Virus record (IMG/VR): IMGVR_UViG_3300031857_000201
Location: 1-58,573 of that record
Reading direction: 5' to 3' (one strand)
DNA from: a virus
Lineage: Duplodnaviria > Caudoviricetes
DNA length: 58,573 nt
Shown: positions 1,721-42,814 of the stretch, in pieces
Position numbering within the stretch: the first letter of the stretch is position 1
Layout of the letters: each line of letters opens with the position of its first letter
Notes under the pieces: model-generated
What the model saw: only the letters and a program-made list of their open reading frames with translations
What the model was told of the DNA's origin: nothing
The model's database searches: none
Made by a program: the position numbers and the translations under genes

Positions 1721-1723
1721 GTC

Positions 1724-4294: not shown

Positions 4295-4301
4295 ATCAAC
4301 C

Positions 4302-10047: not shown

Positions 10048-10482
10048 TTACCACCCCGGGCAATTCCATCGTTTTAAACTTGCTGCCTTGCGAGTTAGGT
10101 TACCTTTTTCATCACGTTTAGGCCCTGGCATACCACTCATTCTGGCGCAAAAAGATTTTTTACGACCTTCATCAGCTTTTGTCTTAGGATTCGGTGCCGG
10201 AGGCTTTAAATTTGCCCCTGTAGCACGATTATACTTTTGACGACCTTTTTCTGTAAGGCCTGCGCCACGGTTAGTAGGCAATTTTTCGCCTCTGGAAACC
10301 GACAATCGTGGCTCACCACCATCTTTCATTTTTTCAGGCAATTTGCCATATTGCCGTTTGCCAACATTAGTCGCCGTATACTCTGCTGCAGCAGATGAAG
10401 ACATGCCAATTTTTTTGGCAATCTTAGGGTCATTCTCAATGGCCTTCATTAGCCGAAATTGTGCTTTAGACTTTGCTGGCAT
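10048..10482 (-). CDS. Small basic late protein, apparently two modules joined at MKDGG
   Basis: Lys/Arg-rich. N-part MPAKSKAQFRLM..., C-part GLTEKGR.KYNR...RKKSFCARM...LKRWNC. Confidence 0.75.
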   Translation of the reverse strand: MPAKSKAQFRLMKAIENDPKIAKKIGMSSSAAAEYTATNVGKRQYGKLPEKMKDGGEPRLSVSRGEKLPTNRGAGLTEKGRQKYNRATGANLKPPAPNPKTKADEGRKKSFCARMSGMPGPKRDEKGNLTRKAASLKRWNCPGW

Positions 10483-11066
10483 CAGGACACCTGTGTAACC
10501 ATTGCGATGATTGAAGGAATCGCAGGATACACCGGCGACACACTTGCTGGTAGATGTTCGATAGTTACCGTGGTAGATGTAGGTACCCAGATAATTTGGA
10601 TATAATCGTTGGCATTCAAGCTCAACAAGAACGGCAAAGATATTCCTAAATATCCAAACACCCCCGCGCTCTTTCTAGCAGGGATCGTATATTGAGTGGC
10701 AGAATTCGCCAAGTCTGTACCATTGATACGTAACCAGATAGTGGCGTCTTGTTGTGCGTTGTCTGTATTCTTGAGCTGAATACTGAACTGCAACATGTAC
10801 TTACCAGTGTTCGGGACGGTCAATTTACTGTTATCGACTAGTGACACACCATCTGCTACATCAACGGTATTGAACGTAACCGCTGTACCTGCAGTAGTTC
10901 CACTAGTCTGATCGGTGGAATCGCTAAAACCACCATATGCAGCGTCGTATTGACGAAGTGTGTCGAGCGTCGCCTTGACATTCGCACCACTCTGAACCAA
11001 CGGAATCAATTCAGTGCCAGTCAAAGTGGCGGCGTTGGGCATTGCGGATATTTTCTGATCAGCCAT
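10482..11066 (-). CDS. Short fibre/spike with a C1q/BclA-like C-terminal head
   Basis: N-terminal ADQKISAMP...GTELIPLVQSG anchor motif. C-terminal YGGF...TFNTV...LTVPNTGKYMLQFSIQ...L.LNANDYIQI. Confidence 0.65.
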   Translation of the reverse strand: MADQKISAMPNAATLTGTELIPLVQSGANVKATLDTLRQYDAAYGGFSDSTDQTSGTTAGTAVTFNTVDVADGVSLVDNSKLTVPNTGKYMLQFSIQLKNTDNAQQDATIWLRINGTDLANSATQYTIPARKSAGVFGYLGISLPFLLSLNANDYIQIIWVPTSTTVTIEHLPASVSPVYPAIPSIIAMVTQVS

Positions 11067-11305
11067 TATGACGACTCCAACACGATCTTGCTATCATCTT
11101 CTTGCAGGACATAACCGGGCGACGCTTCATCGGCTATGTAATACGTGGTAGTGGGGGTAGCCCCGTACATATCTACCACACCATCATCTCCAACGTCCAG
11201 GCCGAAATCGGTACCACCAATCACATTCTGAGCACCCACTCCGGAGGCGAATCCATCACTGGTGTTCGCTTGATTAGCTACTCCTGAATAGCCGACTTTG
11301 CCCAT
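11066..11305 (-). CDS. Small acidic virion-module protein
   Basis: 79 aa, ends YVLQEDDSKIVLESS, coupled on both sides. Confidence 0.65.
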   Translation of the reverse strand: MGKVGYSGVANQANTSDGFASGVGAQNVIGGTDFGLDVGDDGVVDMYGATPTTTYYIADEASPGYVLQEDDSKIVLESS

Positions 11306-11607
11306 TAAATGCCAGCCTGAACGAGGTTCAGAGTAACAGTACCACTCCCGCTATTAACCAGAACTTTAATACCAGTCACCGGAAATGCATAATTACCATC
11401 AGCATTTGCAGTCTGACCGGCCACGGTCGGATGCGAGTACCAAGTCGTGAATCCAACCGCTGGATCATCAAATGTGTGTTGAACGGTGTAGTTAACAGTA
11501 CCTGTCGCGACAGCACCGAAACCAACGTTGAACGGGCTGATGTTGGTGTTCATCACAATGGCTGTACTACTACCTACACCAGTTTGAGAAACAATTTGAA
11601 CTTTCAT
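11305..11607 (-). CDS. Small beta-sandwich virion protein (decoration/spike base?)
   Basis: 100 aa, alternating beta-strand pattern, position downstream of capsid genes. Confidence 0.6.
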   Translation of the reverse strand: MKVQIVSQTGVGSSTAIVMNTNISPFNVGFGAVATGTVNYTVQHTFDDPAVGFTTWYSHPTVAGQTANADGNYAFPVTGIKVLVNSGSGTVTLNLVQAGI

Positions 11608-11616
11608 AAAAGTTCC

Positions 11617-12036
11617 TTATGCGTATACGTTAGCGTAATGCTTTTGCATTTCCAGAATGATAGTGTATGTATCACCTGCACCAGTCTCATACGTGGTAAA
11701 AAGAATCTTTCCATTTTTACCAGCACCTGCGTTATTCGTCAAACCCCCAATATGGGAATAATCCTGGATGTATTGCGTATTAGATGGAATGGTTTGAATA
11801 GGCACCGGCGCAGTAGCATCCCACAATAATCGCACTGACATGCCATTTGTAAGACCTGAAATCTTTAGAAGCGATACTTCATCACATGCACCACCTGCTG
11901 CAGAAGGGTTAAGCACAGCAGGATCTACTTTTACTACATTTGTTTCGCCTGTAGCATTATCTGTAATAAAGTCAAACTTCATGATGGCAACGCGCTCGCC
12001 ATCAAAAAGCGTTTGCGATGTAGCAGTTGCTGCCAT
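11617..12036 (-). CDS. Small virion structural protein
   Basis: Likely ATG at 12036 (MAATAT) after a GGAG RBS. The longer track start runs through a terminator hairpin. Confidence 0.65.
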   Translation of the reverse strand: MAATATSQTLFDGERVAIMKFDFITDNATGETNVVKVDPAVLNPSAAGGACDEVSLLKISGLTNGMSVRLLWDATAPVPIQTIPSNTQYIQDYSHIGGLTNNAGAGKNGKILFTTYETGAGDTYTIILEMQKHYANVYA

Positions 12037-12048
12037 AACGATCTCCAT

Positions 12049-12070
12049 AAAAGTGGGGCCGTAGCCCCAC
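12049..12070 (-). terminator. Intrinsic terminator
   Basis: Minus strand GTGGGGC-TACG-GCCCCAC followed by TTTT, just after the stop of 12078..12530. Confidence 0.7.
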
Positions 12071-12077
12071 ATTCAAA

Positions 12078-12530
12078 TTAGTGGCAAGAACCACCTTTTT
12101 TGAAAGCTTTATGGCCGCAAGAGTCGCCTTTCATTGCAACAAAGCCACCTTCTTTATACTTTGAAGGCTTAATTGCGCCACCAGTTTTGTAACCACCTTG
12201 CGCATTGGCCACACCACCAGTTTTATAGCCGCCTTGCGCGTTAGCCACGCCACCGGTTTTCAAACCTTTGTGCGCTTTAGATGCTGGCATTGAAGCATGC
12301 TTCTTCAACTTGGATTCAGTTGAAGCCATTTTCTTCATTTCCATTGCGTGCTCGGCTTTGGACTCACCACCTTCTTTCATTGCCATAGTACCTCCTGACA
12401 TAGGTTGCATTGCGCCAGCCATTGGTGGCTGCGGCGCAGTAGGAAGTGCAGGTGCCATACCACGACGCATAGGGCGTTGCATACCTCTACGTGGCGCTGC
12501 CGGCATCGCTGCAGTTTTAGCTTTGGGCAT
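12078..12530 (-). CDS. Basic low-complexity protein with repeated xKxGG motifs
   Basis: Contains MKEGG, LKTGG, YKTGG x2, YKEGG, FKKGG, and a tandem KTGGVANAQGGY repeat. Confidence 0.8.
   Translation of the reverse strand: MPKAKTAAMPAAPRRGMQRPMRRGMAPALPTAPQPPMAGAMQPMSGGTMAMKEGGESKAEHAMEMKKMASTESKLKKHASMPASKAHKGLKTGGVANAQGGYKTGGVANAQGGYKTGGAIKPSKYKEGGFVAMKGDSCGHKAFKKGGSCH
12178..12262. repeat. 36-nt imperfect tandem repeat (~2.3 copies) encoding KTGGVANAQGGY
   Basis: Seen in both DNA and translation. Confidence 0.85.
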
Positions 12531-12744
12531 GTCGTTCTCCTAATTTGTGAGCATTGATAGGGATTGCATCGCCTATCTCATACCCAGGTATACTTACAGG
12601 TTCTTCTGTCAAATCAAGTCGAGCAAGCAAAGATTGCAAAACATCAACCGCTGCTTGTGAAGCAATGGCAACTTCATGTGCATGTTGCCGCTGCTCCTCC
12701 ATGCGCTTGATTTGCTCTAATAGATACTCTTTAGTAATATCCAT
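12517..12744 (-). CDS. Small coiled-coil protein, possible fibre chaperone
   Basis: 75 aa, helical heptad pattern, TAATG coupling. Confidence 0.65.
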   Translation of the reverse strand: MDITKEYLLEQIKRMEEQRQHAHEVAIASQAAVDVLQSLLARLDLTEEPVSIPGYEIGDAIPINAHKLGERHAQS

Positions 12745-13322
12745 TAAGCGGTGTCAGAAACCATTAAGTAGTACGTGGTGCCCGAAGCATTTTTGATAGG
12801 AATCACATGTGATACGGCAGCAGCAGATTCTGCAGCAACCATTGCGTCAGGAAACACAGCAAAAGTGCTAATTGCGCCAGTGCCACTATTGGTCAAACGC
12901 AGATAAGATGCATTAGTCCAAGTGCCACCGGTAGCAAAATCAGAATCCAATTGCAGCGCCGCAATGGTGCCACCAGGATTTGTAGAAGTACCGCCCAGCG
13001 TCACACGTAGTGCATTGCCTGCGCCAGAAATTGTACCGCTACCATTGATTGACAGCGAGATATGTGCGCCATTAACAGTGCCACCAGTTGCAGCGCCTGC
13101 GCCAGTTACTCGAGTAAGAGCACGTAGTGTCTCACCTGAACCAGTGGAGGTGAATTCCAAACGGCTGTAGTTGAGGCGAACATCGCCAGTGGTATTAGAT
13201 GCTGTTGCATACGAACTGGAAACGTTACCAGCAGTCGTTACAGCAATAGGATCAGCGGAAGTGCCACCAATAAAACCATTAAGCGATTTTACCGGGCCGC
13301 TAAAGGTAGTTTGTCCCATCAT
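12744..13322 (-). CDS. Capsid-associated fibre/decoration protein
   Basis: First gene after the MCP. N-terminal GQTTFSGPVKS motif, Gly/Thr/Ala-rich, TAAGGAG RBS. Confidence 0.65.
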   Translation of the reverse strand: MMGQTTFSGPVKSLNGFIGGTSADPIAVTTAGNVSSSYATASNTTGDVRLNYSRLEFTSTGSGETLRALTRVTGAGAATGGTVNGAHISLSINGSGTISGAGNALRVTLGGTSTNPGGTIAALQLDSDFATGGTWTNASYLRLTNSGTGAISTFAVFPDAMVAAESAAAVSHVIPIKNASGTTYYLMVSDTA

Positions 13323-13330
13323 TACTCCTT

Positions 13331-13396
13331 ATGCACAAGTTGCTCGTCCGTCTGTGCATCGTCTGCTAGGGCAGTCTGACGAGCTATTTTCCCTAG
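13331..13396 (-). ncRNA. Double-pseudoknot RNA element downstream of the major capsid gene (probably the Mu-gpT-DE motif class)
   Basis: Three perfect interleaved stems: 13391-96/13366-71, 13378-84/13342-48, 13353-59/13331-37. Three CAGAC linkers. The location matches my recollection of the Mu-gpT downstream element. Confidence 0.7.
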
Positions 13397-13429
13397 AAAA
13401 CTCTCCCACCAATTGCTTAGTGGGAGAGT
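13397..13429 (-). terminator. Intrinsic terminator after the major capsid gene
   Basis: Minus strand ACTCTCCCAC-N10-GTGGGAGAGT followed by TTT. Confidence 0.75.
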
Positions 13430-13437
13430 GTCTTACA

Positions 13438-14352
13438 TTAAATACCCGGAGTACCGTACATTGCACGCGGGTCGGTGAAGCCAATATCGTAACGCTCGGT
13501 GGCCTTGTAGCGCATCGAGTCGGTTTCGAAATCGCCTTCCATGGTCTTTTCCAGACCACGACGCATCAGCAGCTTCATACCTTCCGGCGTGTCGGTCTGT
13601 ACCCACCATGCGGTAGCGGAGGTAAGACGAGACAGAACCGAAGCACCTTGCGGCAGCAAACCAATCGACTTGATCGGGTTGATGTCGTTGTCGGCGGTGC
13701 CGGAACGCAGTACCGACTTCAGCAGGACTTCAGCTTGGAAGACGTTGCCAGGTGCAACAACCAGCTTCAGCGGTTGCAGGCGAATCTTCTTGCCGTTGTT
13801 GTCCACAGCCTGACGAACTTGAATCAGCATCTGCTCCAGAGAAGTCTGGGACAGGTTAGCTGCAGAAGTCAGCAGGTTGCTGAAGGTACCATTGACGATG
13901 GGGTGGTTGGAAGCGTTCAATGCAACGCCGTCACCACCGGGGTATGAACCGTTGAATGCGCGATTCAGTACGTTAGCTGCCAGAGTTTCTTTGGTTTCGA
14001 CCAGAGACTGCGCCAGGTGACGAGCATAGACGTTACCAATACGGATGTGATCGCCATCTTCCACCAGCACCTTGGTCAGTGCAAAGGCCAGACCGTAGAC
14101 CTTATACACATAGCGCTTCAGGAAGAGAACGCCACCTTGCTGGTAGCTAACCGGAGTGCCGTCGGGCAGCTCAGGAGCTGCACCGAAGCCGTACAGAACC
14201 GGCTCTTCATGGTAGTTACGGGGGATACCGGTTTGCTCACGGAACACTTGGCTCCATTCATCGGTACGCTGATCATAGACGCCGTCGAATGCTTCATTGA
14301 GAATTGGCTCAACAATCGAACGAAAGTCTGTACTTCTCATTGGGGCTGCCAT
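13438..14352 (-). CDS. Major capsid protein (HK97 fold, Mu gpT-like family)
   Basis: 304 aa, strong codon bias and a downstream terminator. Motifs GFGAAP, YGLAFALTK..VED, LARS/AQS..ETKE..AANVLNRAF, GGDGVAL, RYKATERY..G..DPR. Confidence 0.92.
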   Translation of the reverse strand: MAAPMRSTDFRSIVEPILNEAFDGVYDQRTDEWSQVFREQTGIPRNYHEEPVLYGFGAAPELPDGTPVSYQQGGVLFLKRYVYKVYGLAFALTKVLVEDGDHIRIGNVYARHLAQSLVETKETLAANVLNRAFNGSYPGGDGVALNASNHPIVNGTFSNLLTSAANLSQTSLEQMLIQVRQAVDNNGKKIRLQPLKLVVAPGNVFQAEVLLKSVLRSGTADNDINPIKSIGLLPQGASVLSRLTSATAWWVQTDTPEGMKLLMRRGLEKTMEGDFETDSMRYKATERYDIGFTDPRAMYGTPGI

Positions 14353-14367
14353 AGTTTATGCCCTCCC

Positions 14368-14937
14368 TTAGATAGCGTTAAGAGTAGCGACAAACTGATG
14401 TTCAGCAATTTGTACACGAACGATCGTGTACGCATCGCCCCATGCGTTGTCAGCATACGGTGCCAGATCGACGATACGCAGCTGACCAAATGTCGACGTG
14501 CCAGTCAGCGAAGCCGACATGGTGCACTGCGACAGACCAGTGGTAGAAGAACCAGCAGTGAGGTTGGAGAAGTTGGCGTTGTCGCCAATCGCGGTTTGAG
14601 CAACAGAACCGTCGGCCTGGATTTCATACACGATCAGAGGATCGTTGTAGAAATACGCAACGCACGAACCAGCCTGATATGCCGTATTGGCAGGCCAGTA
14701 GTTCGATACGCGGCGACGACCGGTGGTGTCAGTCCACTCAACGCCAGCAAAGGCGCCAACGAAAGCTTCAGTGGAAGTAACAGGCTGAATAACGCCGTTG
14801 ACATACTTGACGGGCTGACCCTTCAGGATGTCGGACGTGTAGCCCGAGGTAATACCATTGGCCAACGCTTGAGCACGTTCCAGTCCCGTAGGAAAGAACG
14901 CCGGGCGAAGACCGAATGGTGCAGAAGTTGCGCTCAT
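14368..14937 (-). CDS. Capsid cement/decoration protein
   Basis: APFGLRP N-terminus, VGAFAGVEWTD, DP.IVYEIQ. Immediately upstream of the MCP with the same codon bias. Confidence 0.75.
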   Translation of the reverse strand: MSATSAPFGLRPAFFPTGLERAQALANGITSGYTSDILKGQPVKYVNGVIQPVTSTEAFVGAFAGVEWTDTTGRRRVSNYWPANTAYQAGSCVAYFYNDPLIVYEIQADGSVAQTAIGDNANFSNLTAGSSTTGLSQCTMSASLTGTSTFGQLRIVDLAPYADNAWGDAYTIVRVQIAEHQFVATLNAI

Positions 14938-14972
14938 AAAATGAGTCCTTTCACATTCGATTTCATCAAATG

Positions 14973-15509
14973 CTACTCAAAAGTAGGCATTTTGATGTGG
15001 GCGTTAGATTCCATGCCTTCGCCTTCAACCGATACTAGTGAACGACCCCTGCTGTCACGAGCGCCAAGCAATTGCTCTTGCTGAACTTTAATCTTTTCTT
15101 GCTCCTCAAGAGGAGCTTGATGATGCAGTTCATACATGATTTGTTGGTACAAGTCCATCGGCATCTTGTACAACAACATCTCATTGCAAGATACATAGCC
15201 AACATTCTCGCCAGCCTTTACTCGCAGATGCTCAAAGCCTGGTAACTCTTCGGCTTTTACAGGTTCATACCCCATTCGCATCCGTTTGTGGATGGGATCG
15301 TACTGATTTGATGAAGACAACCAGCACAAATGATAACCCGGAATTTCGGGCGGGGTCGGAAGTGCTTCTTGAAGCCACTCCGAGCGGAACATCTTACGAC
15401 GCTCCTCGGAAAATGCAAAATTCGTTTCAGGTGCATCACGCTCGCGGTCTTCTGCTGCGCGGGTTTCGCGGCCACCTGCTTTGAGATCCTTCTTAAAACG
15501 TCCGTCCAT
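14973..15509 (-). CDS. Conserved head-module protein of unknown function
   Basis: Likely ATG at 15509 after GGGGG. LPTPP..PGYHLCW and GYEPV motifs. Lies between scaffold and cement genes. Confidence 0.7.
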   Translation of the reverse strand: MDGRFKKDLKAGGRETRAAEDRERDAPETNFAFSEERRKMFRSEWLQEALPTPPEIPGYHLCWLSSSNQYDPIHKRMRMGYEPVKAEELPGFEHLRVKAGENVGYVSCNEMLLYKMPMDLYQQIMYELHHQAPLEEQEKIKVQQEQLLGARDSRGRSLVSVEGEGMESNAHIKMPTFE

Positions 15510-15510
15510 A

Positions 15511-16515
15511 TTACCCCCTAGTCTTGTTTTGACGATCCCAGTCTGCAAATTTGCGGATCATCTTATTACGTTGTTCAATGTTCTCCCACATGCCTGCTTC
15601 TTTAATGGCAGCAACGCGATCGGGCGTCAAACGAAACTCATTAGGCCGACTACCACCTGATGATTCTCGTCCTGAACTCGTAACCACAGACCTTGGAGGT
15701 TTCTGATTTCGGTTGCGATCATTATATCCTTGACTTGAGCGATGTGGTAAATATTTTTGCAGCCGCTCGTCAAGCTCTTCCCAGTACTCTTCAGAAGTCG
15801 GGTCAAACCCTTCTTCAGTCAGTTTACGGTCAATTCGTTGAGCAATCTCTGAATCAAGATCTTTGCCTTGCGGGTCATACCAGGTATTACGCCGCATCCA
15901 ATCAGCCGCCATTCTTTGAACCATAGGGTCCGGCAACTCAATGTTAGGCTTGGTAGTTTGAGACATCTGCTTAGTGGCATTCTCTTTAAGCGTGTTAAGA
16001 GACTCCATCTTGCGTTGAGCCTCATACAGCATCTCTTGAGCTTGCACCAAAGCATCTCCGTCTTGCTGCGAGACTGCCTCTTTCATTTTCATTTTGGCAA
16101 ACTCAACTTGCACGCCAGCGTCGTCAATGGCTTTATCGACTCGAGCCAGCTCGGCGCCCGATGTCTTTTTCTCAAGTTGAGCAATACGCTCTGCCAGTTC
16201 TGTATTTTGCTTTTTCAGAGCAGAAATCAGATGGTTGGACTCACGTACCTTTTCTTTGTGCAACTGCTTCTTAAGGCGACGCTCTTCACGACGTGCAGCA
16301 CGAATGGCTTCACGCTCAGGGTCATCGTCTTGAGGCTCATTATTTTGTGGCAGATTATTTTGTAAACTTCCACCATCATCATCGTCATCATCGTCATCTT
16401 GCGAATCAGCCTGTTGATTTTGATTAGGTGGCATCTCATCATCTGGCAAATGTACCAGAGCGGAACCATCTTGCTCTTCAGTGAGCTGGAGTTCCATTTT
16501 TTGTGTTTGATTCAT
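15511..16515 (-). CDS. Capsid scaffolding protein
   Basis: Acidic N-terminus, long coiled coil, W..RN.WY motif, short helical C-terminus. Position between portal and MCP. Confidence 0.75.
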   Translation of the reverse strand: MNQTQKMELQLTEEQDGSALVHLPDDEMPPNQNQQADSQDDDDDDDDGGSLQNNLPQNNEPQDDDPEREAIRAARREERRLKKQLHKEKVRESNHLISALKKQNTELAERIAQLEKKTSGAELARVDKAIDDAGVQVEFAKMKMKEAVSQQDGDALVQAQEMLYEAQRKMESLNTLKENATKQMSQTTKPNIELPDPMVQRMAADWMRRNTWYDPQGKDLDSEIAQRIDRKLTEEGFDPTSEEYWEELDERLQKYLPHRSSQGYNDRNRNQKPPRSVVTSSGRESSGGSRPNEFRLTPDRVAAIKEAGMWENIEQRNKMIRKFADWDRQNKTRG

Positions 16516-16533
16516 AGTTCTACCTTTCTGCGT

Positions 16534-16956
16534 TTAGACAAACGCTCTGATGGCCAGAGGGTCCCCAGTACAGGCACCAATGAGTTCATGGTCATTAAAG
16601 AACGTAAAGAGGGCTTTGCCTTTCACGTCATTATGCTCATAGTCGATCTCCCAGCGATCGCCACCCCATTTAGGTACACGTACATAGTCGCCTACTTTGG
16701 CCCAAGCGCCTTCCGGCCAGGGCTCCATGGTATCCCGCTTGCAAAACGCAAGTGGTCCTATGGCAATAACTTTGCCAATCATGGTATTCCATTTCTCAGT
16801 TTCTTTGGTTTCCTCGACCAGGACGATACCGGACTTGGTTGCCTTCTCTTTGACAGCACGAAGTTGTACCAAAACACGAGCACCAAACGGGCGCATCAAC
16901 GGATCCACAACGGGGAACGCTTCATCGAGCGTCTGTTCTACGATATCATTCGACAT
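16534..16956 (-). CDS. groES: Co-chaperonin GroES (Cpn10)-like protein
   Basis: RPFGARVLV...KTKSGIVL-like mobile loop...GKVIAIGP...KVGDYV..PKWGG. Confidence 0.88.
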   Translation of the reverse strand: MSNDIVEQTLDEAFPVVDPLMRPFGARVLVQLRAVKEKATKSGIVLVEETKETEKWNTMIGKVIAIGPLAFCKRDTMEPWPEGAWAKVGDYVRVPKWGGDRWEIDYEHNDVKGKALFTFFNDHELIGACTGDPLAIRAFV

Positions 16957-17134
16957 CTCTTTTTTCCTCTTCTAAAAGCATATCAAGAATCGATAAAGCC
17001 TCTGCCAGGCCTTGGTAATGGCCGACTAAACGCTGATAAGACTCATAATTGACTGGCGTTCCTGCATGAAGAACCTCAGTAATCTTTGCCTGCTCAGCTT
17101 TTACTCGGCCAATGTAGTCCGATAGAGTCTTCAT
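16946..17134 (-). CDS. Small helical head-module protein
   Basis: 62 aa with YESYQRLVG.YQGL, coupled to both neighbours. Confidence 0.7.
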   Translation of the reverse strand: MKTLSDYIGRVKAEQAKITEVLHAGTPVNYESYQRLVGHYQGLAEALSILDMLLEEEKRDVE

Positions 17135-17412
17135 CAGCGACCGCGACCTGACTTCCGCATAGGTACTGCAACTGCGATAGTTAGACCGGGACCTTTAGAG
17201 CCGCCGCCTTTTGCAAAGCGAGCGATCTTTCCGGTTGGTTTACCCAATGGCTCTTTTTGTGAAGAGTCATTGATCAGCGTACGAGTCTTGCTCTCAGGCA
17301 TGACTTTACCGCCATCTTTGTAGCCTTTAATACCTTTGCCAGGCGCCTTGGTGATAGACTCACCACCGCCCATGGCAAGGCGCTTATGCATGTTGATTGC
17401 TTCATCAGACAT
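17134..17412 (-). CDS. Small basic protein with xKxGG motifs
   Basis: ATG at 17412 after TAAGGAG. Contains LAMGG, YKDGG, FAKGG. Confidence 0.75.
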   Translation of the reverse strand: MSDEAINMHKRLAMGGGESITKAPGKGIKGYKDGGKVMPESKTRTLINDSSQKEPLGKPTGKIARFAKGGGSKGPGLTIAVAVPMRKSGRGR

Positions 17413-17422
17413 AATAGTCTCC

Positions 17423-17647
17423 TTAAAAACCGTGTTTGTGTTTCCCAGTTGCGGTACGACCAAAGCCGTGCCAGTCTTTGACGCTACCCCCTGACTTATA
17501 GCTAGGTTGTTGCGACATTGCTTCTTTTCTTACTTTACTCAAAAGATCTACATCTGTTTTCTCAATCTTTGGATCAGGCAAATCATACTTAGTACGAACC
17601 TTGCCTAGTAAATCCAGACCTTTGGGTGAAATGAAAGTGTCAGACAT
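17423..17647 (-). CDS. Small basic protein with YKSGG motif
   Basis: ATG at 17647 after GGGAG, overlapping the portal stop. Confidence 0.7.
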   Translation of the reverse strand: MSDTFISPKGLDLLGKVRTKYDLPDPKIEKTDVDLLSKVRKEAMSQQPSYKSGGSVKDWHGFGRTATGKHKHGF

Positions 17648-20168
17648 TGTCAACTCCCATTTGTGATTGCAATGCTTGTTGCGCGCCAAGTACTGTTTTG
17701 ATTTGCTCATGCTGCAAATTAGCAGCGCTATGGTCAAGCTCTGCAGCCTTAATACGCTCAGCGGTAAGGTTCTTTTCAGTGTTCATCACCAGCTTAGTAT
17801 TCTCAGCTTTCTCAGCCTTGGCTGCATCCAATTGTAGACGCTGTACATCCAGCATGGCGTCAGTTTGATCCTTGGCTGCTTTGCGCTGAGTCTCTGCCAT
17901 TTGTACATCAACCAGTGCTTTGACTTCAGGAGGCATAGGCGCTTGGCCTGACATTTGCTGCATCATTTGCAATGCTGCCATAATAACAGGTGGCAACTGA
18001 GCAAACGTTTCTTGTGAATCCATCATAACATGCTGTGATGCTGCAGCCAAGAGCTTATCAGCTGCAGGTGGCAGCATTTGTTCTTTCATAACATTGAATT
18101 GACGACCGAGTGCCGTGGAGGCGTAGGTATCAATTTGATTGAGATACCACAGTGTGACGTGCTGCTTCAAATGCTCAAGTGCTGCAGGAATATACACCGG
18201 GGCTATAATGGGGTTGGCACCATATAAAGGGTTCTTCATATAGTCCAACAAAACCTGGATGTGAGATAAATGATCCTGGTGCGGAAAAGCGCCTACTGGC
18301 TTACCTACCGTCATGGCTACATTTTCAAGAGCCGGGTTCATATCCTTGACATTCTGTGGATCAGGTAGAACCTCGTTGACATCAGGGATCTTGATTTGCT
18401 TAAGGATTCTCTTCTCAACTGCAATGCGGTTATACAAATCAGGATTAGCTTGAGCACGAGCTGCCAATGCCTGAATTTGAGCGTAGCGCTGAGTCTCTGA
18501 GAAAATGTGCGGATCAGATACCGGCACAATATCAGAATTCTTCTCAAAGTCTTCTTTGCTAACGCCAATTTCTTCAGCAATGTCATTTTTCTGTTGGTCA
18601 TCCAAATACCAACGATTGAGACGAGCAATGACACGCAATACGCGACGTTGAGACTCATGCAGCCTTGCATGAATTGAGCTGAACACAGCAGCGCCTTGCT
18701 CAATCAAAGCTTGTGTTGTACCTACCGGAGCTTGCGAATTGACATCAGCAATCTTTTCTTCAGACGTTGTTACCACGCCCTTAGCAGCATCAGTCAACCA
18801 GCCTAGCAATTGGAACAATACTGGGCTTGGTGGATTGAATGGCACCGGCATAGCTATCTTGCGGATGTCATCAACTCCTGGCGCTCCCTCAATTTCTGCA
18901 ACTTGAGTTGGTTCGATAGTGGTGCTCTGACCCGAGATCTTAGCCCCTTTGAGCTTGAGCATTGTGGGGGCAGTGTTAATATGTGCACTATCCAACAAGG
19001 CACGGAGAGCACCAGTAAGAGCAGCACTAAGGCCACCAATGAGATGAGGGAATCCGATTGCATAAGCACCACGCCAAGGGATGAACTTAAATTCAATAAT
19101 CCAATCGAGCTTAGACATTGTGTCATCGCCGTACTCCCAGTTGCGATATAAGCCTAGCACATCGCGAGTAAGCTCATCCACCATCAAAATATACGGCGCA
19201 CGCTCGCCTTTTGCGTAACTATCATCTTCTTGCTCAAGCCAAGTGTAAATGTGAAAAACGCGGCGTATGCCATCTACATTCTCTGCTTGAGATCTTTTAC
19301 CCTCAATCTTATTGGTTGCTTTCTCAGCCGCCGACTCTTCCGGCTCCATGCTGGCGCGATAGATGTTGACGTCCTTATATAAGCCTCGTGCAATTCGAAG
19401 CTCAAACTCTTCCTGAGTAATATCTTGAACTTCGGTAACGCGGCCAGCCGTATAGAAGTTACCAGCTGCAAAGGGTAAATAGATATTGTCAATGGGCAAA
19501 AATTCTACGCATGGGCGTTTCTTTTGCTCATCGTACCAGATCTTAAAGTATTGAGAGCCACCCAATGGAATTTGAGTGAACATCTGCTCTTGCTCATCTC
19601 TAAACTCCTCAATTTGCTCAGTCAACTGCCAATTGAGATATTCTTTTTTGCGCTCAGCCTTGGTGGTCTTTTCCTCAGTCACCTCGCCAAAGATCTTAGT
19701 GCGAACAGGCCCATCCGGCGGAAAGAGTTCTTTAATTGCACGTGCCGCAAAGTCAACACAGGCCTCAGCCATGACTGGGTGGACAACCTTGGATGCGCCT
19801 TGAAAAGATGCTCCACCAGGGGCGTCATGCCCCAAGCCTGTTCTACGAATGCCATCCTCGTATTGTTTATCGCGCTCAGCACGAGCATCTTTATCTTTAT
19901 CAATTAGCTCAAGATACTTGGTCGCCAAAGAGCTGGCTTCGTATGAAGCCATATCCTCGGCCAGGTTAGCGTAGAAGTCCGGCTCATCTTCTGGGCCTTT
20001 ATGGTCATCCATGCGAACGATAACTGAGCCATCTGGCAATTCTTCAAAGTCATCCTCATCTGGCTCTTCTTGATCGAAGATGTCGTTGAATTGTTGCTCA
20101 TCATCGTCATCGGAGACGGGCCCAATGAAACGATTGTAATCCTGTGGGATCGGCATCTCAGTTGCCAT
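17640..20168 (-). CDS. Portal protein (P22-like, long C-terminal barrel)
   Basis: 842 aa near terL. HPVMAEACVDF, GGSQYFKIWYD, APVGTTQALIEQG, SSIHARLH, and a Gln/Ala-rich helical C-terminus. Confidence 0.88.
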   Translation of the reverse strand: MATEMPIPQDYNRFIGPVSDDDDEQQFNDIFDQEEPDEDDFEELPDGSVIVRMDDHKGPEDEPDFYANLAEDMASYEASSLATKYLELIDKDKDARAERDKQYEDGIRRTGLGHDAPGGASFQGASKVVHPVMAEACVDFAARAIKELFPPDGPVRTKIFGEVTEEKTTKAERKKEYLNWQLTEQIEEFRDEQEQMFTQIPLGGSQYFKIWYDEQKKRPCVEFLPIDNIYLPFAAGNFYTAGRVTEVQDITQEEFELRIARGLYKDVNIYRASMEPEESAAEKATNKIEGKRSQAENVDGIRRVFHIYTWLEQEDDSYAKGERAPYILMVDELTRDVLGLYRNWEYGDDTMSKLDWIIEFKFIPWRGAYAIGFPHLIGGLSAALTGALRALLDSAHINTAPTMLKLKGAKISGQSTTIEPTQVAEIEGAPGVDDIRKIAMPVPFNPPSPVLFQLLGWLTDAAKGVVTTSEEKIADVNSQAPVGTTQALIEQGAAVFSSIHARLHESQRRVLRVIARLNRWYLDDQQKNDIAEEIGVSKEDFEKNSDIVPVSDPHIFSETQRYAQIQALAARAQANPDLYNRIAVEKRILKQIKIPDVNEVLPDPQNVKDMNPALENVAMTVGKPVGAFPHQDHLSHIQVLLDYMKNPLYGANPIIAPVYIPAALEHLKQHVTLWYLNQIDTYASTALGRQFNVMKEQMLPPAADKLLAAASQHVMMDSQETFAQLPPVIMAALQMMQQMSGQAPMPPEVKALVDVQMAETQRKAAKDQTDAMLDVQRLQLDAAKAEKAENTKLVMNTEKNLTAERIKAAELDHSAANLQHEQIKTVLGAQQALQSQMGVDNV

Positions 20169-23100
20169 TATGCTCTCCGAAGTAACTCAGCCCGCATGGC
20201 GGGAATTGATTTTGTCATTTGCACTTTTTTCTTAACGGCGCCACCCTTGGCGTAGCCTGGGCGTGGCTCTGCTTCAAACGCACGAAGCGCATATTCCAAT
20301 ATGTAAGGGCTTACTTCACCAAAAAAGTCAACAGGCTCTTCACGAATTCTTTCAGTGTAGTCATGCACTGTTGCTCGTATAGACGCATCGTCATCATTAG
20401 CGTCGATCATATTATCTAGCTGCTCACGCAAATGTTGAAGTATTTCACCTGCCTCGCCAAAATCTGCAGGCGATAGAAACTCACCTAAAGCGTTATTTGC
20501 CATGCGCCGAATCTGATTTGGCATTGCGTCCATTTCAGTTAGCAATGCGCCACGATTGTTGATGTCAGCCCAATCAACTTCGAATGCAGGCGTATCTATA
20601 TCGTCAAACAAAGTTGCTAAAGCGTCTTGGGGTACTTGTACTTCAGCAGGGGGCGGCGGCAGTTCTTCTGCTGCACGCAACTCACGTATACGATCATTAA
20701 CTTCGCGTATAGTTCTAAATAAGTGTTGATGTACGTCTCTAAAATCTTGTAAAACACGCACGTTCTCAGGCGTCATCTCCTGACTCTCTAATACTGCGAT
20801 AGTTTCTTCAGCGCCAGTTAATCTAGCCATTTGTTGATTGCCATAATTCAGCAATTCTTGCAGGTCATTCGCGATCTCAGGAGGTATCAAATCTGGCGTA
20901 GGCAACGGAGGCTCAGGCGCAACAACAGGCTCAGTTGTAGGCACCACATTATCGCTATTCTGCTTTACAAACTCGTCGAATTGCTTTTGCGTCATAAAGC
21001 GCGGCGCGGTGCTATAGTCAATGCTACGTATGACATCTACAGGCATGTCAGTTCTACGCTCAACATCACGAGCCAATGATCTAAAGTCGTTGTTATTGCG
21101 CGTATCAAATACGCCGGCATTTTCATGCAAATTGCTTGACGTTTGGTTGATAATGCTTGCGTATTGATTCATATACTCAGCTACGTCATCGCTATACGCA
21201 GGATTGATTTTTCCATTCTTTGCGCCCGATACATAGCCTATGCTGTAACCGCCTTCTCTGCGGGGCGTTAACTCGATGGTTACTACAGGCAAACCTGTTT
21301 GAGCATCACGCACACTGGCCAAGCGTTTATTGCCTTCGATTACTGCATTTACATATGAGAATTCAGAAGGGTCTCTACCGCCTGTAAACTCATCTTTTGC
21401 AAAGTCAAAGATAGGTTTATAGCTTTGTCTCTCATCTGTGAACAGATTGCGTGAGCCTTCAGCTGCTTGCCCGCATTGTCCAACGCAATGATCCAACACC
21501 AGTGTATCCAAACTTAGTACTTTGGCAATTGTTTCAGGCGGTGTTTCAAAGTCCAATTCAATAACTTTGGTCTTAGGTAAAGTAATTTGCGCCAAGCCCA
21601 GTTGCGCTTGCGCTGCATCAAGCGTTTTTTGCTTAGCGACTTGCGCAGCCTTAGCTTCTTCTGCCTCTTTGGCCATGCGCCTTTCAGCGCCTTTGCGTAC
21701 ATACTTTTCAACGGTTAGATTTTTAAGTTGATCCGCCGGTATATTGCCTCGCACTACGTCGTCATAGAAATCTTGTGCAATCTTTCCAAAACCTAACTCA
21801 TGCCCAATTTGACTTTCTCGGCCTGCGTATATTGTCTCACCTTCGGCTGCACGTGTAGCAGAAGGGTAAAACGGACGCTCATACGGATCAATATCACGCG
21901 TCAAAAATTGTTCTGGCGTACGCAATGCTACAGCCATATCTGATATAGCTTCATACGCCTTGCCGGTTTTTAAGTTCTCAATTTCTTTTTCAAGTTGCTG
22001 AATTTGCCGACCTTTGACTCGCAATGGATTGGTCAAGGCTGCATACTCGGGAATCGTTGCAGGGTCTACACCTTGAGCTTCAGCTTGTGCAAGCAACGTA
22101 TTACGTCGATCTTGCATTGCATCTAACTCATCTTGCGCAACAAGCAATTGCCCCATCTTCTCGTTTGCTTTTACACCTACAAGGCCTTCTACGGGGTACC
22201 CTGCAGCTTCGCGAGATGGTTGCACCCACTCAGGTTGTATGTATGACGCCATATCACGTATAAGCTCAGGCGACTCGTACGTCAAACCTTGCGCCGCCAA
22301 CCCTACCAATGGGTCACCTTCAGTGCCTACGTTACGAACCAAGTAGTTTGAGAAGGGGCCTTGCAGCCAATCAACTGCTGCAGCGTGGCGTTGCGTGAAG
22401 TCAATAGGCGTTACGATATTGGCACCTGTGCGCTCGGCTAATGCACGCGCTTCAGGTGAATTGAGATATTCAGTGTAAAGCTCCATTGTCTTGGCTGCGT
22501 TGGAATTGCGCTCGCTGTACTCTCTATCAAATGCTCGCCTTGCATCTGATGAGCCAAGATCTGGATACATTTCCATTTTACGCTCTACTGCGTACTCACG
22601 CATTGCATCTATCAAAGGATTGGGCAATTCACTCTCAATGCGATCGCGCCATTGCGCAAGCAAATTGTATGGCGCCAATTCTCGAGATGCACCTGCAACT
22701 GTGCGTACGATATTAGTTGCCGGGTCCACAGTAAAGCTTGCGCCCATTGCCGTTTCAGGCTTGGTAGGCTCTATTAACTTTGTGCCTTTTCGGCGTACAG
22801 CGTACATCTCAGGCGACGTGGCGGCGGCAAATGGCGATTCATCCTGCAGACTTTGGCGTCTCTCACTTATGCTGGCCCACTCATCTGCCAAGCTTTGCAG
22901 ACGTGAGCCAATTGTTGGTTTGCCTGTGATAGGGTCAATGCGCTGAAAGCCAGTTTGCGCGGCCTGGAAATCAGCAGGCACTTCTCTCAATTGTGTAGCT
23001 AAACGCGCGGCGTCACCTTTCAATGCCAAGACATCTGCGCCTGTGAGCATAGGGCGACGTGGCAAACCGCCTGGCATTGCAGGCCAAGCATGCGGCAGTT

Positions 23101-23554
23101 TAGAGGCTTCAAACGCTTTACCAAATGCTGACGCAAACTCTTCGCCTTGGGGTGTTTGCATTGGTGCTGCGTTCTTCTCGAGCAATGCGTTGACTTCAGG
23201 CGTAGATGTTTGACCTGTCAACAAAGCCTGCCAAGGTGTCCGCACCATCATTTGGAACGGGTTACCGAAGAGCGTATTGGTTACATCGGAGACTTGCTGT
23301 GGCAATGTAGCCATGTCACGCTGCAACTCAGAAAAGCGTTGACGTGGCTTTGCAAGCGGATCTTTGAAATTGGCATGACGCATTGCCGCCAATGCACGAC
23401 GCATCTCATCGATATTCGGAGGATTGTTGTACAAAGGATCCGCAGTGGGAATGTCCAGGTATCCAGGACGAGGGACCTCGCCTCGAGGACGTTGAGTTCC
23501 GGCGTAGTAGTCTTCTTCGCCAGGAATGTAGTTACCTAACGCGTCATACGGCAT
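20168..23554 (-). CDS. Large (1128 aa) protein with a PcfJ-like domain, possibly an internal/ejected virion protein
   Basis: Likely ATG at 23554. LDHCVG...Y...V..G..RLASVRD...P.VTIE resembles PcfJ-like domains. Ends YAKGG plus a basic tail. Confidence 0.6.
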   Translation of the reverse strand: MPYDALGNYIPGEEDYYAGTQRPRGEVPRPGYLDIPTADPLYNNPPNIDEMRRALAAMRHANFKDPLAKPRQRFSELQRDMATLPQQVSDVTNTLFGNPFQMMVRTPWQALLTGQTSTPEVNALLEKNAAPMQTPQGEEFASAFGKAFEASKLPHAWPAMPGGLPRRPMLTGADVLALKGDAARLATQLREVPADFQAAQTGFQRIDPITGKPTIGSRLQSLADEWASISERRQSLQDESPFAAATSPEMYAVRRKGTKLIEPTKPETAMGASFTVDPATNIVRTVAGASRELAPYNLLAQWRDRIESELPNPLIDAMREYAVERKMEMYPDLGSSDARRAFDREYSERNSNAAKTMELYTEYLNSPEARALAERTGANIVTPIDFTQRHAAAVDWLQGPFSNYLVRNVGTEGDPLVGLAAQGLTYESPELIRDMASYIQPEWVQPSREAAGYPVEGLVGVKANEKMGQLLVAQDELDAMQDRRNTLLAQAEAQGVDPATIPEYAALTNPLRVKGRQIQQLEKEIENLKTGKAYEAISDMAVALRTPEQFLTRDIDPYERPFYPSATRAAEGETIYAGRESQIGHELGFGKIAQDFYDDVVRGNIPADQLKNLTVEKYVRKGAERRMAKEAEEAKAAQVAKQKTLDAAQAQLGLAQITLPKTKVIELDFETPPETIAKVLSLDTLVLDHCVGQCGQAAEGSRNLFTDERQSYKPIFDFAKDEFTGGRDPSEFSYVNAVIEGNKRLASVRDAQTGLPVVTIELTPRREGGYSIGYVSGAKNGKINPAYSDDVAEYMNQYASIINQTSSNLHENAGVFDTRNNNDFRSLARDVERRTDMPVDVIRSIDYSTAPRFMTQKQFDEFVKQNSDNVVPTTEPVVAPEPPLPTPDLIPPEIANDLQELLNYGNQQMARLTGAEETIAVLESQEMTPENVRVLQDFRDVHQHLFRTIREVNDRIRELRAAEELPPPPAEVQVPQDALATLFDDIDTPAFEVDWADINNRGALLTEMDAMPNQIRRMANNALGEFLSPADFGEAGEILQHLREQLDNMIDANDDDASIRATVHDYTERIREEPVDFFGEVSPYILEYALRAFEAEPRPGYAKGGAVKKKVQMTKSIPAMRAELLRRA

Positions 23555-24974
23555 AGGGGTTGACCCTCTTTGGCTGGGAGTCGTCGGAATACGAACTCTC
23601 GTCATTGTATACCGGATCAATGTCCAAGAATCCCATATCACGCAAAATTCTCAAAGCTTGAGTCGTGGCATCAACCAAGTCGTCATGCCGAACTTCAGGG
23701 AAAGCGCAAAGCTGACTAATCAAAGGCTCCACCCAATCACGTGCAAAGCCGGCTTTCTTCATAGACTCAGGCACGTAGACTCGACCCCGCTTAATGATGG
23801 GTGCCACGATGTTCAGCCTTTGCATCTTGTCAGCCAGCCCAGGGTTGTAGCTTCTTACGGGGACTCCGGCTCTTTGAAGATCTTGAATGAGACTGATACC
23901 GGCCGACTTATCTTCGATGAGTACAAGGTCGACCTTCTTCCCGTGCCCAAACTCATTTTCGTCCCCATAAATCGACTTAGACTCCTCAACAACTTTTGGT
24001 CGTAAGTCGGGGTACTGCAAATGCTCTTCCCAGCAATCAACGACCATTGCTGCAAGGGGTTTGTCTTCGGAAGGCTTGAAGATGCCCAGGACGACGCAGG
24101 CTGTTGGATCATTGTGGGTCTTGTCCGAAGTAGCACAATCGTAGGACTGTACAACATACTCAAACTTCGGGAGAGGCTTCTCAGCAGGCCAGAGCTTGAA
24201 CCAGTCACGCTTGACGATACCCGCCTCTTCAGGGTCGATAATCTCGGCATGAATTTCTTGGCGCCCAAGTTTGGTCCCCTCATACTGCAAAATTTGTTTC
24301 TGGAAGGTCGGAGCGAGGTTCTGGAGGTTGTCGTAGGTACTGGCCGAGGTATACACCACATCATCCCCATCGCGGGCCACCAGATCCACAATGAGAGGCT
24401 TGGGCTTAGGTGTTGTGGTACAGATCAGCCGAGGGTTCTTGCCAAGCCGCAATCCGAATTGCAGCATATCCCATGCGTCATCCAGGTAATCCCATGCTGC
24501 CAACTCATCCAGCCAACCGCCATGGAACTGAGGACCACGGAATCGTTCCGGTTCTGAAGCTGGGATGCCTTTGATGATAGACCCGTTTGTGAGTCTCAAC
24601 TCGTGAAGAGACTTGGTGTACGTCTCAATGAGAAGCTGTGGGATGACATTAAGCAGTCCGGAATCGCCTTCAAAGCAAACATCACGAACATCTCCGGATG
24701 TTGGTGCTGAGACCAACCAACGTGTGCCAGGCTGAGTCCAAGCTTCCCACCACACCCACTCGGCTGCGCACCGAGTCTTGCCTGCGCCACGTCCTGCAAG
24801 GAGTAACCACACACTCCACCAATCGCCGGATGGAGGGATCTGATGCTTACCGGCTTTGAGGAGCCACTTCATCCGCGCCAAAGTCGCGGCTTTTTGCTCA
24901 GGCGGAAGTTTGTTGAGATCCGGCCCTTTGCGTATCTTCTCGGCTAATTGCTCACTTACCTCGGGACTCAGCAT
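23544..24974 (-). CDS. terL: Terminase large subunit
   Basis: Walker A LAGRGAGKTR, Walker B WLDE, coupling motif TTTP, RNase-H-like nuclease SYDCA...IEDKSAG...HDDLVDA. Confidence 0.96.
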   Translation of the reverse strand: MLSPEVSEQLAEKIRKGPDLNKLPPEQKAATLARMKWLLKAGKHQIPPSGDWWSVWLLLAGRGAGKTRCAAEWVWWEAWTQPGTRWLVSAPTSGDVRDVCFEGDSGLLNVIPQLLIETYTKSLHELRLTNGSIIKGIPASEPERFRGPQFHGGWLDELAAWDYLDDAWDMLQFGLRLGKNPRLICTTTPKPKPLIVDLVARDGDDVVYTSASTYDNLQNLAPTFQKQILQYEGTKLGRQEIHAEIIDPEEAGIVKRDWFKLWPAEKPLPKFEYVVQSYDCATSDKTHNDPTACVVLGIFKPSEDKPLAAMVVDCWEEHLQYPDLRPKVVEESKSIYGDENEFGHGKKVDLVLIEDKSAGISLIQDLQRAGVPVRSYNPGLADKMQRLNIVAPIIKRGRVYVPESMKKAGFARDWVEPLISQLCAFPEVRHDDLVDATTQALRILRDMGFLDIDPVYNDESSYSDDSQPKRVNPYAV

Positions 24975-25419
24975 CGGACTGCCTCACAGCCAAAAGCTCG
25001 TTCAACAGCTCACCCGTGAAGTCATGCGTATGCTCAACTTGCACAGGCCCGTCGTTCTTACCCGTGAGCTCAACTTTGGAGTTCTCCCGATATTGCTCGG
25101 GGAACCGCGCAGCCATGCTTCTTGACCAGAGACCAGTGTTTAGCTTTGGGCTACCAGGCGACTCAATGAGATGATTCTCAGCCAGTTCTTCCCAGTATTG
25201 CAGCGCATGCTGTCGTGATATTTCCAAGGCTTCCCGAAAATCCTTGTGCGCAGCTTCCCAATTTGTGAGATTGCTAGGCGGAATGTTGAGTATCGACCCA
25301 ATCGCCCAACGTGACTTGCCCTGCTTGCCAAGCTCAATGACCTGCTCACAATAAGCAGGGTCGTATTTGCTTGGACGCCCTAAAAACTTTCCGTTTTTTG
25401 ATGGAGTCTTGGTAGTCAT
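24952..25419 (-). CDS. terS: Terminase small subunit
   Basis: GRPSKYDP.YCE.VIELG..G HTH-type start and C-terminal VELTGKNDGPVQ. Directly upstream of terL. Likely ATG at 25419. Confidence 0.85.
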   Translation of the reverse strand: MTTKTPSKNGKFLGRPSKYDPAYCEQVIELGKQGKSRWAIGSILNIPPSNLTNWEAAHKDFREALEISRQHALQYWEELAENHLIESPGSPKLNTGLWSRSMAARFPEQYRENSKVELTGKNDGPVQVEHTHDFTGELLNELLAVRQSDAESRGK

Positions 25420-25439
25420 GGCTCGGATTTTATCCTCAT

Positions 25440-42806: not shown

Positions 42807-42814
42807 GTGCGAGA

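Follow-up and report, generated by a model that had tools for sequence, protein, structure and literature searches.

A glycine-pair motif at module boundaries and C-terminal tails of unrelated late proteins of a tailed phage, shared with tape measure proteins

The window analysed here is the full IMG/VR record IMGVR_UViG_3300031857_000201, a stretch of 58,573 bases with direct terminal repeats from a virus of the Caudoviricetes. The element in question is a short peptide motif of its late proteins, [FYML][KAR]xGG, hereafter the strict motif, which is composed of a bulky residue (Φ), a lysine, alanine or arginine, any residue and two glycines. In its extended form it reads Φ-[K/A/R]-x-G-G-x-[V/I/A], and it is often followed, 2-12 residues later, by a short amphipathic helix. 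At the protein level the motif is under selection. It recurs in unrelated late proteins, where it is placed at module boundaries and in C-terminal tails, is also found in tape measure proteins, and probably serves as a common mark for assembly or processing.

The motif and its carriers in the genome

The late genes lie on the minus strand, in 1-25,500 and 42,800-58,573, with the replication genes in between. The head module and the motif instances are listed in Table 1. The start of the portal gene overlaps the end of the p1128 gene, its end overlaps the start of the p74 gene, and residues 1-100 of the portal carry a net charge of -25. The phage appears to be short-tailed, as suggested by an SU10-type adaptor (Table 1). 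By portal identity, the nearest public relatives are an uncultured contig from Manatee Spring (59%) and the Caulobacter phages RW, KcrB, RLK and GB2A (48%), followed at a greater distance by the pelagiphages HTVC027P and HTVC023P and the roseophages CRP-901 and CRP-902. A relative of the capsid protein is encoded in 590 of 600 candidate stretches of IMG/VR, from which the best 80 loci were used. The family surveys described below cover the open reading frames (ORFs) of 82 loci, that is, these 80 together with L001 (the Manatee Spring contig) and L002, and the loci of relatives were sampled up to 10 kb from the capsid gene.

Table 1. Genes and motif instances of the window, with positions on the 58,573-base record
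Feature	Position	Strand	Remark
Small terminase	24952-25497	-	Head module, first in transcription order
Large terminase	23544-24974	-	Head module
p1128, acidic, 1128 residues	20168-23554	-	Between terminase and portal
Portal, 842 residues	17640-20168	-	PHROG 1216 portal, E 8.6e-18
p74	17423-17647	-	Small basic protein, after portal
p92	17134-17412	-	Small basic protein, encoded after portal
Helical protein, 62 residues			Between p92 and GroES-like gene in transcription order
GroES-like (Cpn10) protein	16534-16956		Inside head module
p334, scaffold-like	15511-16515	-
p178, conserved, fold not recognised	14973-15509	-	Between scaffold-like and capsid genes
Protein of 189 residues			Transcribed after p178, ahead of capsid gene
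Major capsid protein	13438-14352	-	Pfam Phage_capsid_4, E 1.2e-12
ORF	12744-13322		Downstream of capsid gene
p150	12078-12530	-	Downstream of capsid gene, after the preceding ORF
Several beta-rich proteins			Downstream of capsid gene, between p150 and p144
p144	10048-10482	-	Downstream of capsid gene
p1040, tape-measure-like ejection protein	46297-49419	-
SU10-type adaptor	52714-53343		Pfam E 1.8e-25
MKDGG	10315-10329	-	p144
MKEGG	12366-12380	-	p150
LKTGG	12249-12263	-	p150
YKTGG, two copies	12213-12227, 12177-12191	-	p150
YKEGG	12144-12158	-	p150
FKKGG	12090-12104	-	p150
YKDGG	17308-17322	-	p92
FAKGG	17203-17217	-	p92
LAMGG	within 17134-17412	-	p92
YKSGG	17486-17500	-	p74
YAKGG	20240-20254	-	p1128
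FRSGG	46570-46584	-	p1040
LKAGG	15471-15485	-	p178

All 14 instances that the first-pass annotation had reported in unrelated late proteins are in place, and the carriers of the window are mutually unrelated by BLAST (every pair at E ≥ 0.18). Three further strict matches were found, FATGG (12744-13322), LAGGG (in a Gly-rich ORF, 4302-5210) and FAVGG (2-1720). For p92, YKDGG and FAKGG stand, whereas LAMGG was rejected as a chance match, its glycine pair not being conserved in homologues. LKAGG of p178, proposed as a possible member, is present and conserved, but only as L-x-A-G-G-R; with the strict motif in 2 of 71 distinct family members, it was rejected as a strict member.

Altogether, the 47 late ORFs hold 17 strict copies versus 3.71±1.89 in within-protein shuffles, none of which reached 17 in 3000 trials. 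With p150 excluded, 11 copies are counted versus 3.54±1.87 (2/3000), and at least one copy is carried by 10 proteins versus 3.4±1.7 (4/3000). The early proteins, which were counted in the window and in one relative, contain no copy in 5480 residues of the window versus 0.72 expected. These enrichment figures for the window overstate the significance, because the motif was defined after this genome had been seen, and the independent support is its replication in relatives. Over the whole genome of the Manatee Spring relative, the late proteins carry 16 copies versus 2.8±1.7 in shuffles (0/2000), and the early proteins one copy versus 0.84 expected. The comparison of late with early counts had been proposed by the first-pass annotation, which named a lack of enrichment over background and of conservation among the findings that would speak against its idea; on these two points the outcome was the opposite, since the motif is enriched and is conserved in homologues.

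No copy occurs in the capsid protein of the window or in 71 distinct homologues, and the families taken as negative controls gave, in strict copies per distinct members, 0/71 for capsid, 2/74 for portal, 0/60 for the GroES-like protein and 0/75 for the 189-residue protein. Caulobacter phage RW has retained all of the genes for head morphogenesis, yet no strict copy is present in the 20 of its annotated late genes that were examined, which speaks against a strict adenovirus analogy. In the window, p74, p92, p150 and p144 are the sole strongly basic proteins among 21 listed (pI 9.6-10.5, with 14-15% Lys and 10-18% Gly).

Conservation in the homologues of the carriers

Across the 80 related loci the motif persists amid sequence that has diverged around it. 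It is most abundant in p150, a basic (pI 10.3) and disordered protein with six copies and the C-terminal end ...FKKGGSCH. Each of 66 distinct homologues (130-469 residues) carries 4-14 copies, and the proteins best assigned to the family hold 456 copies in 54 members, or 2.75 per 100 residues. At 931 GG sites of the family, F, Y, M or L stands at position -3 in 653 (about 70%, over a background of 13.7%), and in 554 K, A or R also stands at -2; the residue directly before the pair is variable, and V, A or I is favoured after the GG turn. The 576 motif instances comprise 356 distinct 15-mers and therefore point to selection on the peptide, not to a DNA repeat. The spacing ranges from 9 to about 45 residues, and the family is rich in G (15%), K (14%), A (12%) and M (7%). 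In a large protein database, at least 5031 proteins, of 7999 candidates scored, match a long member of the family at E ≤ 1e-3; of the 120 matches listed, none carries a Pfam domain and none is named other than as a 'hypothetical protein'. When the same long member was searched by tblastn against cultured and deposited phages, only the Manatee Spring contig matched. No Pfam family was found for p150, p92 or p74 at E ≤ 0.01, nor for two long p150-family members at E ≤ 0.1, and none of p150, p92 and p74 gave a Pfam match to the KGG stress-protein repeat.

A single cysteine is also frequent in the p150 family. The residue makes up 0.4% of the family, 46 of the 66 distinct proteins end in it and 43 have exactly one, with ...KKRGGRAC and ...FKKGGSCH as typical ends; a short protein encoded after the portal gene of phage RW ends likewise, in ...GKC. 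A disulfide, a covalent link or metal binding are possible roles for this terminal cysteine.

In p144, a DUF3008-like N-module is followed by MKDGG and then by DUF6321 (PF19846), which spans residues 72-139 (78.8 bits versus a cut-off of 28.5; Pfam E 4.8e-22). In its homologues the N-module is swapped or extended, and Φ-K-x-GG is kept exactly at the DUF6321 junction. At the 43 junctions recognised among 58 members, F, Y, M or L stands at -3 in 34 and K, A or R at -2 in 41, and proline directly follows the glycine pair in nine. DUF6321 and the GLYANIHAKR module, which are joined through the motif in p144, each have a small gene of their own, between those of scaffold and capsid, in the T7-like cyanophage KBS-P-1A (L086, 2441-2857). 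Both are found inside a 620-residue protein of the T4-like cyanophage S-IOM18 (L087, 905-2764). Relatives of p144 were detected by tblastn in 350 deposited phage records, mostly of cyanophages and pelagiphages, and a literature search found no paper on DUF6321 or DUF3008.

The layout of p92 comprises an N-terminal INMHKRLAMG helix, YKDGG, FAKGG, a hydrophobic strand and a basic end. Both motifs are kept in 10 of 10 aligned sequences, as [YF][KA]xGG and [FMLN]KKGG/AKGG, and short forms of p92 that lack the motif occur universally behind the portal gene. In nearly all relatives (about 50 loci), RW included, the portal gene is followed by that of a small protein whose N-terminal helix reads ...[VI]xxHKR[LIM]A[MQ]G.... 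Three sequence types of this post-portal protein tend to pair with three tail types of the large protein encoded upstream, which may be mere linkage. In p74, YKSGG is followed by SVKDWHGFG, and the two homologous ORFs found in the 82 loci include one that reads KKTGGSV...KDWHGFGH.

p1128 is an acidic protein (pI 4.9) whose C-terminal tail (20171-20254) reads YAKGGAVKKKVQMTKSIPAMRAELLRRA. In relatives, the place between terminase and portal is taken by proteins of 649-1528 residues, mostly non-homologous to each other, and their tails share the motif: [KAR]xGG lies within the last 60 residues in 34 of 37 and the strict form within the last 100 residues in 20 of 37, with a density of 0.70 per 100 residues in the last 100 versus 0.195 in the body. 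Sixteen tails of the type found in the window could be aligned (Φ-K-x-GG-x-V, 2-12 residues, [IL][PD]AMRxE[LM] and a basic end), and the sole invariant residues are G46, G47 and M62. The glycine pair is also kept in other types of tail, which then differ in their continuation, for example KKRGGxVGxLSAxxK or Φ-A-x-GG-x-V-x-NTDPDxTDxGxIIP. The internal copies are clustered, often as tandem units of about 25 residues that consist of motif and amphipathic helix, and regularly come after the ends of conserved domains, such as FDITPELREKF..PIP. The first-pass remark that the motif separates modules or precedes a short basic tail is thus matched by what is seen in the homologues of several carriers.

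By position and size, p1128 resembles the polyvalent proteins described by Iyer and others, large, hypervariable multidomain proteins encoded beside the portal and terminase genes. Polyvalent domains occur in the relatives' proteins at this locus: of 38 proteins scanned, Pfam matched 10 to ART-PolyVal, 5 to PcfJ, 2 to LPD23 and one each to ParB_N, DUF7178 and DUF6973. p1128 itself has no Pfam hit, and the usual MuF anchor, in contrast to the described proteins, was not detected here. In their paper, polyvalent proteins are predicted to be packaged into heads and injected, and proteolytic processing is proposed (Iyer et al., 2017; PMC5512222); its main text makes no mention of a glycine motif or of linkers. 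The 890-residue protein at this locus of the Manatee Spring contig (L001, 8636-11308) has a Pfam GP88 match (E 2.8e-07) and four K/M/Y-A-x-GG copies, three of them followed by an [ST][IL]xxM[KR] helix.

In p1040, FRSGG opens a conserved C-terminal module of about 95 residues (46297-46584) that contains SDSIPAMLADGEYVF, and residues 950-1016 match PHROG 6090, a tail length tape measure protein family (E 4.1e-08). The module is present on at least 1106 proteins of 572-1820 residues with differing N-terminal bodies, some of which carry DUF4214 or collagen repeats. Among 52 sequences, the motif columns read F19 Y17 L5 M4 at -3 and A27 K18 R4 at -2, with a variable -1; the glycine pair is kept in 51, position +1 is variable and +2 reads V25 A13. 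After the motif, 49 columns are invariant in the same sequences, and the downstream block shows S974, D975, I977, P978, A979, M980, L981, G984, Y986 and V987 as invariant residues. In the AlphaFold2 model of the whole protein, residues 870-1000 have a predicted local distance difference test (pLDDT) score below 50, and Foldseek returned long-helix matches only.

The module of p1040 also matches annotated tape measure proteins of Arthrobacter, Rhodococcus, Nitrincola and Pseudanabaena phages. In three that were examined, those of Nitrincola phage 1M3-16, Rhodococcus phage REQ1 and Arthrobacter phage Hestia, a cassette reads [FY]A[TS]GG-x-V-x-G-x-GTGTSD[SD]IPA-x-LS-x-GE[FH]V, often with extra F[AS]xGG copies nearby; it occurs twice in gp16 of mycobacteriophage Douge and once in gp46 of Pseudomonas phage JBD30. 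Because this same cassette is found in tape measure proteins, the motif is, judged by sequence, the first half of an old, widespread and apparently unnamed cassette. Its first half, Φ-[A/S/K]-x-G-G-x-[V/I/L], is present in p1040, the p1128 tail, p150, p92, p74 and p144, and has the same form as the motif of p150, p92 and p144. The second half, SD[SD]IPA...GE[FYH]V, is full in p1040 (FRSGGDV ... SDSIPAMLADGEYVF), reduced in the p1128 tail (YAKGGAV ... KSIPAMRAEL) to KSIPAM, and absent from p150, p92, p74 and p144, so that these four share only the first half. Whereas tape measure proteins have the cassette once or twice, inside a protein of the tail lumen, here the first half by itself reaches up to 14 copies and has spread to proteins of the head module. 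The first-pass annotation had missed this cassette half, the polyvalent locus of p1128 and the p150 family of thousands.

A literature search with the motif and cassette strings gave no described function or name, and the matches listed were unrelated, those to the motif being mostly primer sequences. NCBIfam was scanned with 14 proteins, 13 of which matched no family: p150, a long p150-family member, p92, p74, p144, p1128, p1040, p178, p334, p189, p62, p192 and p151; the 14th, the GroES-like protein, gave GroES hits below the cut-off only. We do not link the cassette to the β-strand docking of T5 pb2*, because T5 pb2 was absent from the PDB sequence hits and the position in JBD30 would be the sole basis for such a link.

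Two further proteins of the head module bear related sequences. p334 has an acidic N-region, long helices and a basic C-end, and from this composition and its gene position we infer that it is the scaffold; its profile gave only weak coiled-coil or colicin matches to PDB sequences (E ≥ 0.016). Relatives of p334 have an acidic version of the motif, [ML]A[DE]GG[ED]VD, with 16 instances, one per protein, among 71 members, 15 in the acidic N-region and the 16th near the C-end; the copy of the window is degenerate, DDDGGSL. In the p178 family L9, A11 and G12 are near-invariant and R14 is invariant, and 68 sequences include LSAGGR (24), LNAGGR (12), LKAGGR (2) and none (22). H60, S65, D71, C108, N109, E110, H129 and H130 are also invariant in this family.

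In line with the first-pass annotation, which had recognised no prohead protease, no peptidase family was detected by Pfam in 74 ORFs of the window or by PHROGs in 69. The 'protease' labels that PHROGs place on the capsid protein were discarded, since they match only the capsid part of fused families. p178 was considered as a hidden protease and rejected: it has no protease-like fold match, and it is also kept in phage RW, which is without motif proteins. Its AlphaFold2 model (mean pLDDT 66) gave no Foldseek hit in the PDB at E ≤ 0.001, and a wide VIA structure search gave acetyltransferase-like chains at chance level (best Z 3.9). The p178 profile had no hit among PDB sequences, Atlas returned unnamed viral clusters only, and no Pfam, PHROG or NCBIfam family was found.

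Docking, cleavage and self-association as readings of the motif

We tentatively favour, at somewhat less than even confidence and from sequence evidence, the reading that the motif is an incorporation or docking element that folds on binding. The recognition unit would be a tight GG turn with a short strand on either side, in many cases succeeded by a helix, and it would dock unrelated proteins to a conserved component of the head or channel, or to each other, during assembly. The portal, the scaffold-like protein, the capsid protein and the motif proteins themselves are candidate receptors, and a constant 'handle' of this type would let variable bodies enter the virion. The motif marks the disordered or variable parts of its carriers, namely p1128, p1040 and the small, very basic p74, p92, p150 and p144, which would lie inside the virion and are probably ejected.

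Docking is favoured because the motif is under selection as a peptide and recurs ahead of the GTGTSD[SD]IPA block of tape measure proteins, because the tail is constant on hypervariable bodies, because the conservation is two-sided, with a hydrophobic residue at -3 and V, A or I after the turn, and because the motif opens the p1040 module, itself conserved on differing bodies. The low pLDDT of this module fits a segment that folds only in a complex, and the tandem units of motif and helix in the large proteins are closer to binding repeats than to cleavage sites. Proline directly after the glycines at the DUF6321 junctions is a further reason, since most endopeptidases disfavour this residue at P1'. 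The tails of the large proteins also behave as a short conserved terminal peptide on unrelated cargo. This is what is known of terminal shell-targeting peptides such as the T4 capsid targeting sequence, the encapsulin cargo-loading peptides and the coat-binding C-terminal helices of P22 scaffolding protein, all short, conserved and carried by unrelated, exchangeable bodies; the C-terminal position and the basic amphipathic helix recall scaffold C-termini in particular. The sequences are, however, unrelated, and in this phage the motif is also internal and arranged in arrays.

Several points weigh against docking. The modules separated by the motif are separate genes in KBS-P-1A, an arrangement that fits cleavage equally well, and docking would account neither for the several carriers that end 1-4 residues after the glycine pair nor for the terminal cysteine of 46 of 66 members of the p150 family. 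The presumed place of p150, p92, p74 and p144 in the virion is deduced from gene position and charge. The structures of Douge gp16 and JBD30 gp46 resolve no more than the C-terminal 33-42 residues (PMC11445458, PMC13033339); the cassette is unresolved in both structures, and therefore the binding mode has no structural precedent. A complex prediction for the capsid protein (91-sequence alignment) with the last 42 residues of p1128 scored 0.00, was run with no controls and is uninformative either way.

The same arrangement could be read as a protease site, cut after the glycine pair by an unrecognised enzyme of phage or host during or after head assembly, a reading that we regard as unlikely while giving it real weight. 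Polyprotein-like processing of p1128, of the fused modules and of the p150 array would free modules, remove targeting tails and leave small basic peptides with the DNA. The motif does punctuate module boundaries, among them that of the two modules that stand alone in KBS-P-1A; 15 of 71 relatives have the acidic version in the N-region of their scaffold-like protein (the 16th instance being near the C-end); and many carriers end shortly after the pair. Invariant glycine pairs are typical of the narrow-tunnel sites of adenain, of pS273R of African swine fever virus (ASFV) and of SUMO proteases, and the likeness to the adenovirus, ASFV and SUMO-Ulp systems extends to a preceding hydrophobic residue, to several unrelated and presumably virion-internal carriers that are partly basic, and to the position at module boundaries. 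In the adenoviral consensus, (M/I/L)XGG, the hydrophobic residue is at P4, while here it is one position farther out, at P5, and neither a clan CE enzyme nor any other peptidase was recognised in the ORFs scanned with Pfam and PHROGs. Nor does p178, with no protease-like fold match and kept in the motif-free phage RW, look like the enzyme. Proline at P1' in 9 of 43 junctions and the 9-12-residue spacings of p150, which would yield very small peptides, also argue against cleavage. The sole mapped cleavage site of a tape measure protein that was examined, in T5 pb2, lies after R1127 and not after a glycine pair (PMC10038345). The processing of polyvalent proteins proposed by Iyer and others counts in favour of cleavage (Iyer et al., 2017; PMC5512222). 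A bolder version, which we consider improbable, would make Φ-K-x-GG the phage counterpart of the adenovirus and ASFV maturation code: an unrecognised protease, with p178 and its invariant His, Cys and Ser as candidate, would cut polyvalent effectors, strip packaging tails and dice the p150-type array into basic DNA-condensing peptides, and the same signal would mark the long-known and as yet unmapped processing of tape measure proteins.

No specific reader at all would be needed if the motif were a 'sticker', an aromatic residue or methionine with a lysine beside a flexible GG hinge in basic, Gly-rich and disordered proteins, and we judge this about as doubtful as the general cleavage reading. 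Such a sticker would bind or condense DNA and associate weakly with itself inside the head, doubling as a hinge between modules. It would suit the strongly basic character of p74, p92, p150 and p144, the G-, K-, A- and M-rich composition of the p150 family and the free variation there of copy number and spacing, and the acidic N-terminus of the portal and N-region of the scaffold could recruit basic proteins by charge. Small and very basic proteins encoded among head genes are also known as virion core proteins, such as adenovirus VII and mu and the internal proteins of T4, to which the candidate core proteins of this phage have no sequence relation. The motif is, however, kept in acidic contexts, in p1128 and as MADGGEVD in scaffold-like proteins, and at single junctions or tails of folded or acidic proteins, where multivalency is beside the point, and the invariance of the glycines and their flank is stricter than a hinge requires. 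That the pattern is a chance or compositional artefact of GG-rich and Lys-rich proteins is very improbable. It was defined post hoc, a single protein with internal repeats accounts for 6 of its 17 copies, LAMGG is unconserved, and the matches in 4302-5210, 2-1720 and 12744-13322 look incidental; even so, shuffles never reached the observed count in the window or in the relative, and the columns are conserved across hundreds of divergent homologues with synonymous codon variation. The shuffles in the relative, the column conservation and the variety of codons refute it.

If the docking reading is true, the handle would explain the free swapping of large injected effectors in an abundant phage lineage, and it would be available as a tag with which to load foreign proteins into phage heads. 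Should the motif prove to be a cleavage signal instead, phages would have a maturation code of a new kind. The tape-measure link suggests that the phage ejection machinery has in this cassette an old, widespread and unnamed element, with a function that is apparently unstudied, and both the p150 family and the p1040 module, with their thousands and at least 1106 proteins, respectively, have no Pfam or NCBIfam model.

Other features of the genome

Some neighbouring genes deserve a record of their own. Both the Manatee Spring contig and Caulobacter phage RW retain the GroES-like protein; in the window it scores 35.6 bits in Pfam, above the cut-off, and far under the equivalog cut-offs in NCBIfam. 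The last 160 or so residues of the portal are unmatched in more distant relatives. A Gly-rich ORF of 302 residues (4302-5210), with glycine runs of up to seven, overlaps the start of the ORF at 3848-4399, which carries an ALTTAQ repeat, and both are probably parts of a tail fibre. Three large Laminin_G_3 (concanavalin-like) proteins are encoded in 2-3844 and 56690-58573. The joining of the two end genes into one circular gene was rejected, since the direct terminal repeats of the record put the join out of frame; the two Laminin_G_3 proteins at the ends of the record are one region, doubled by the repeat.

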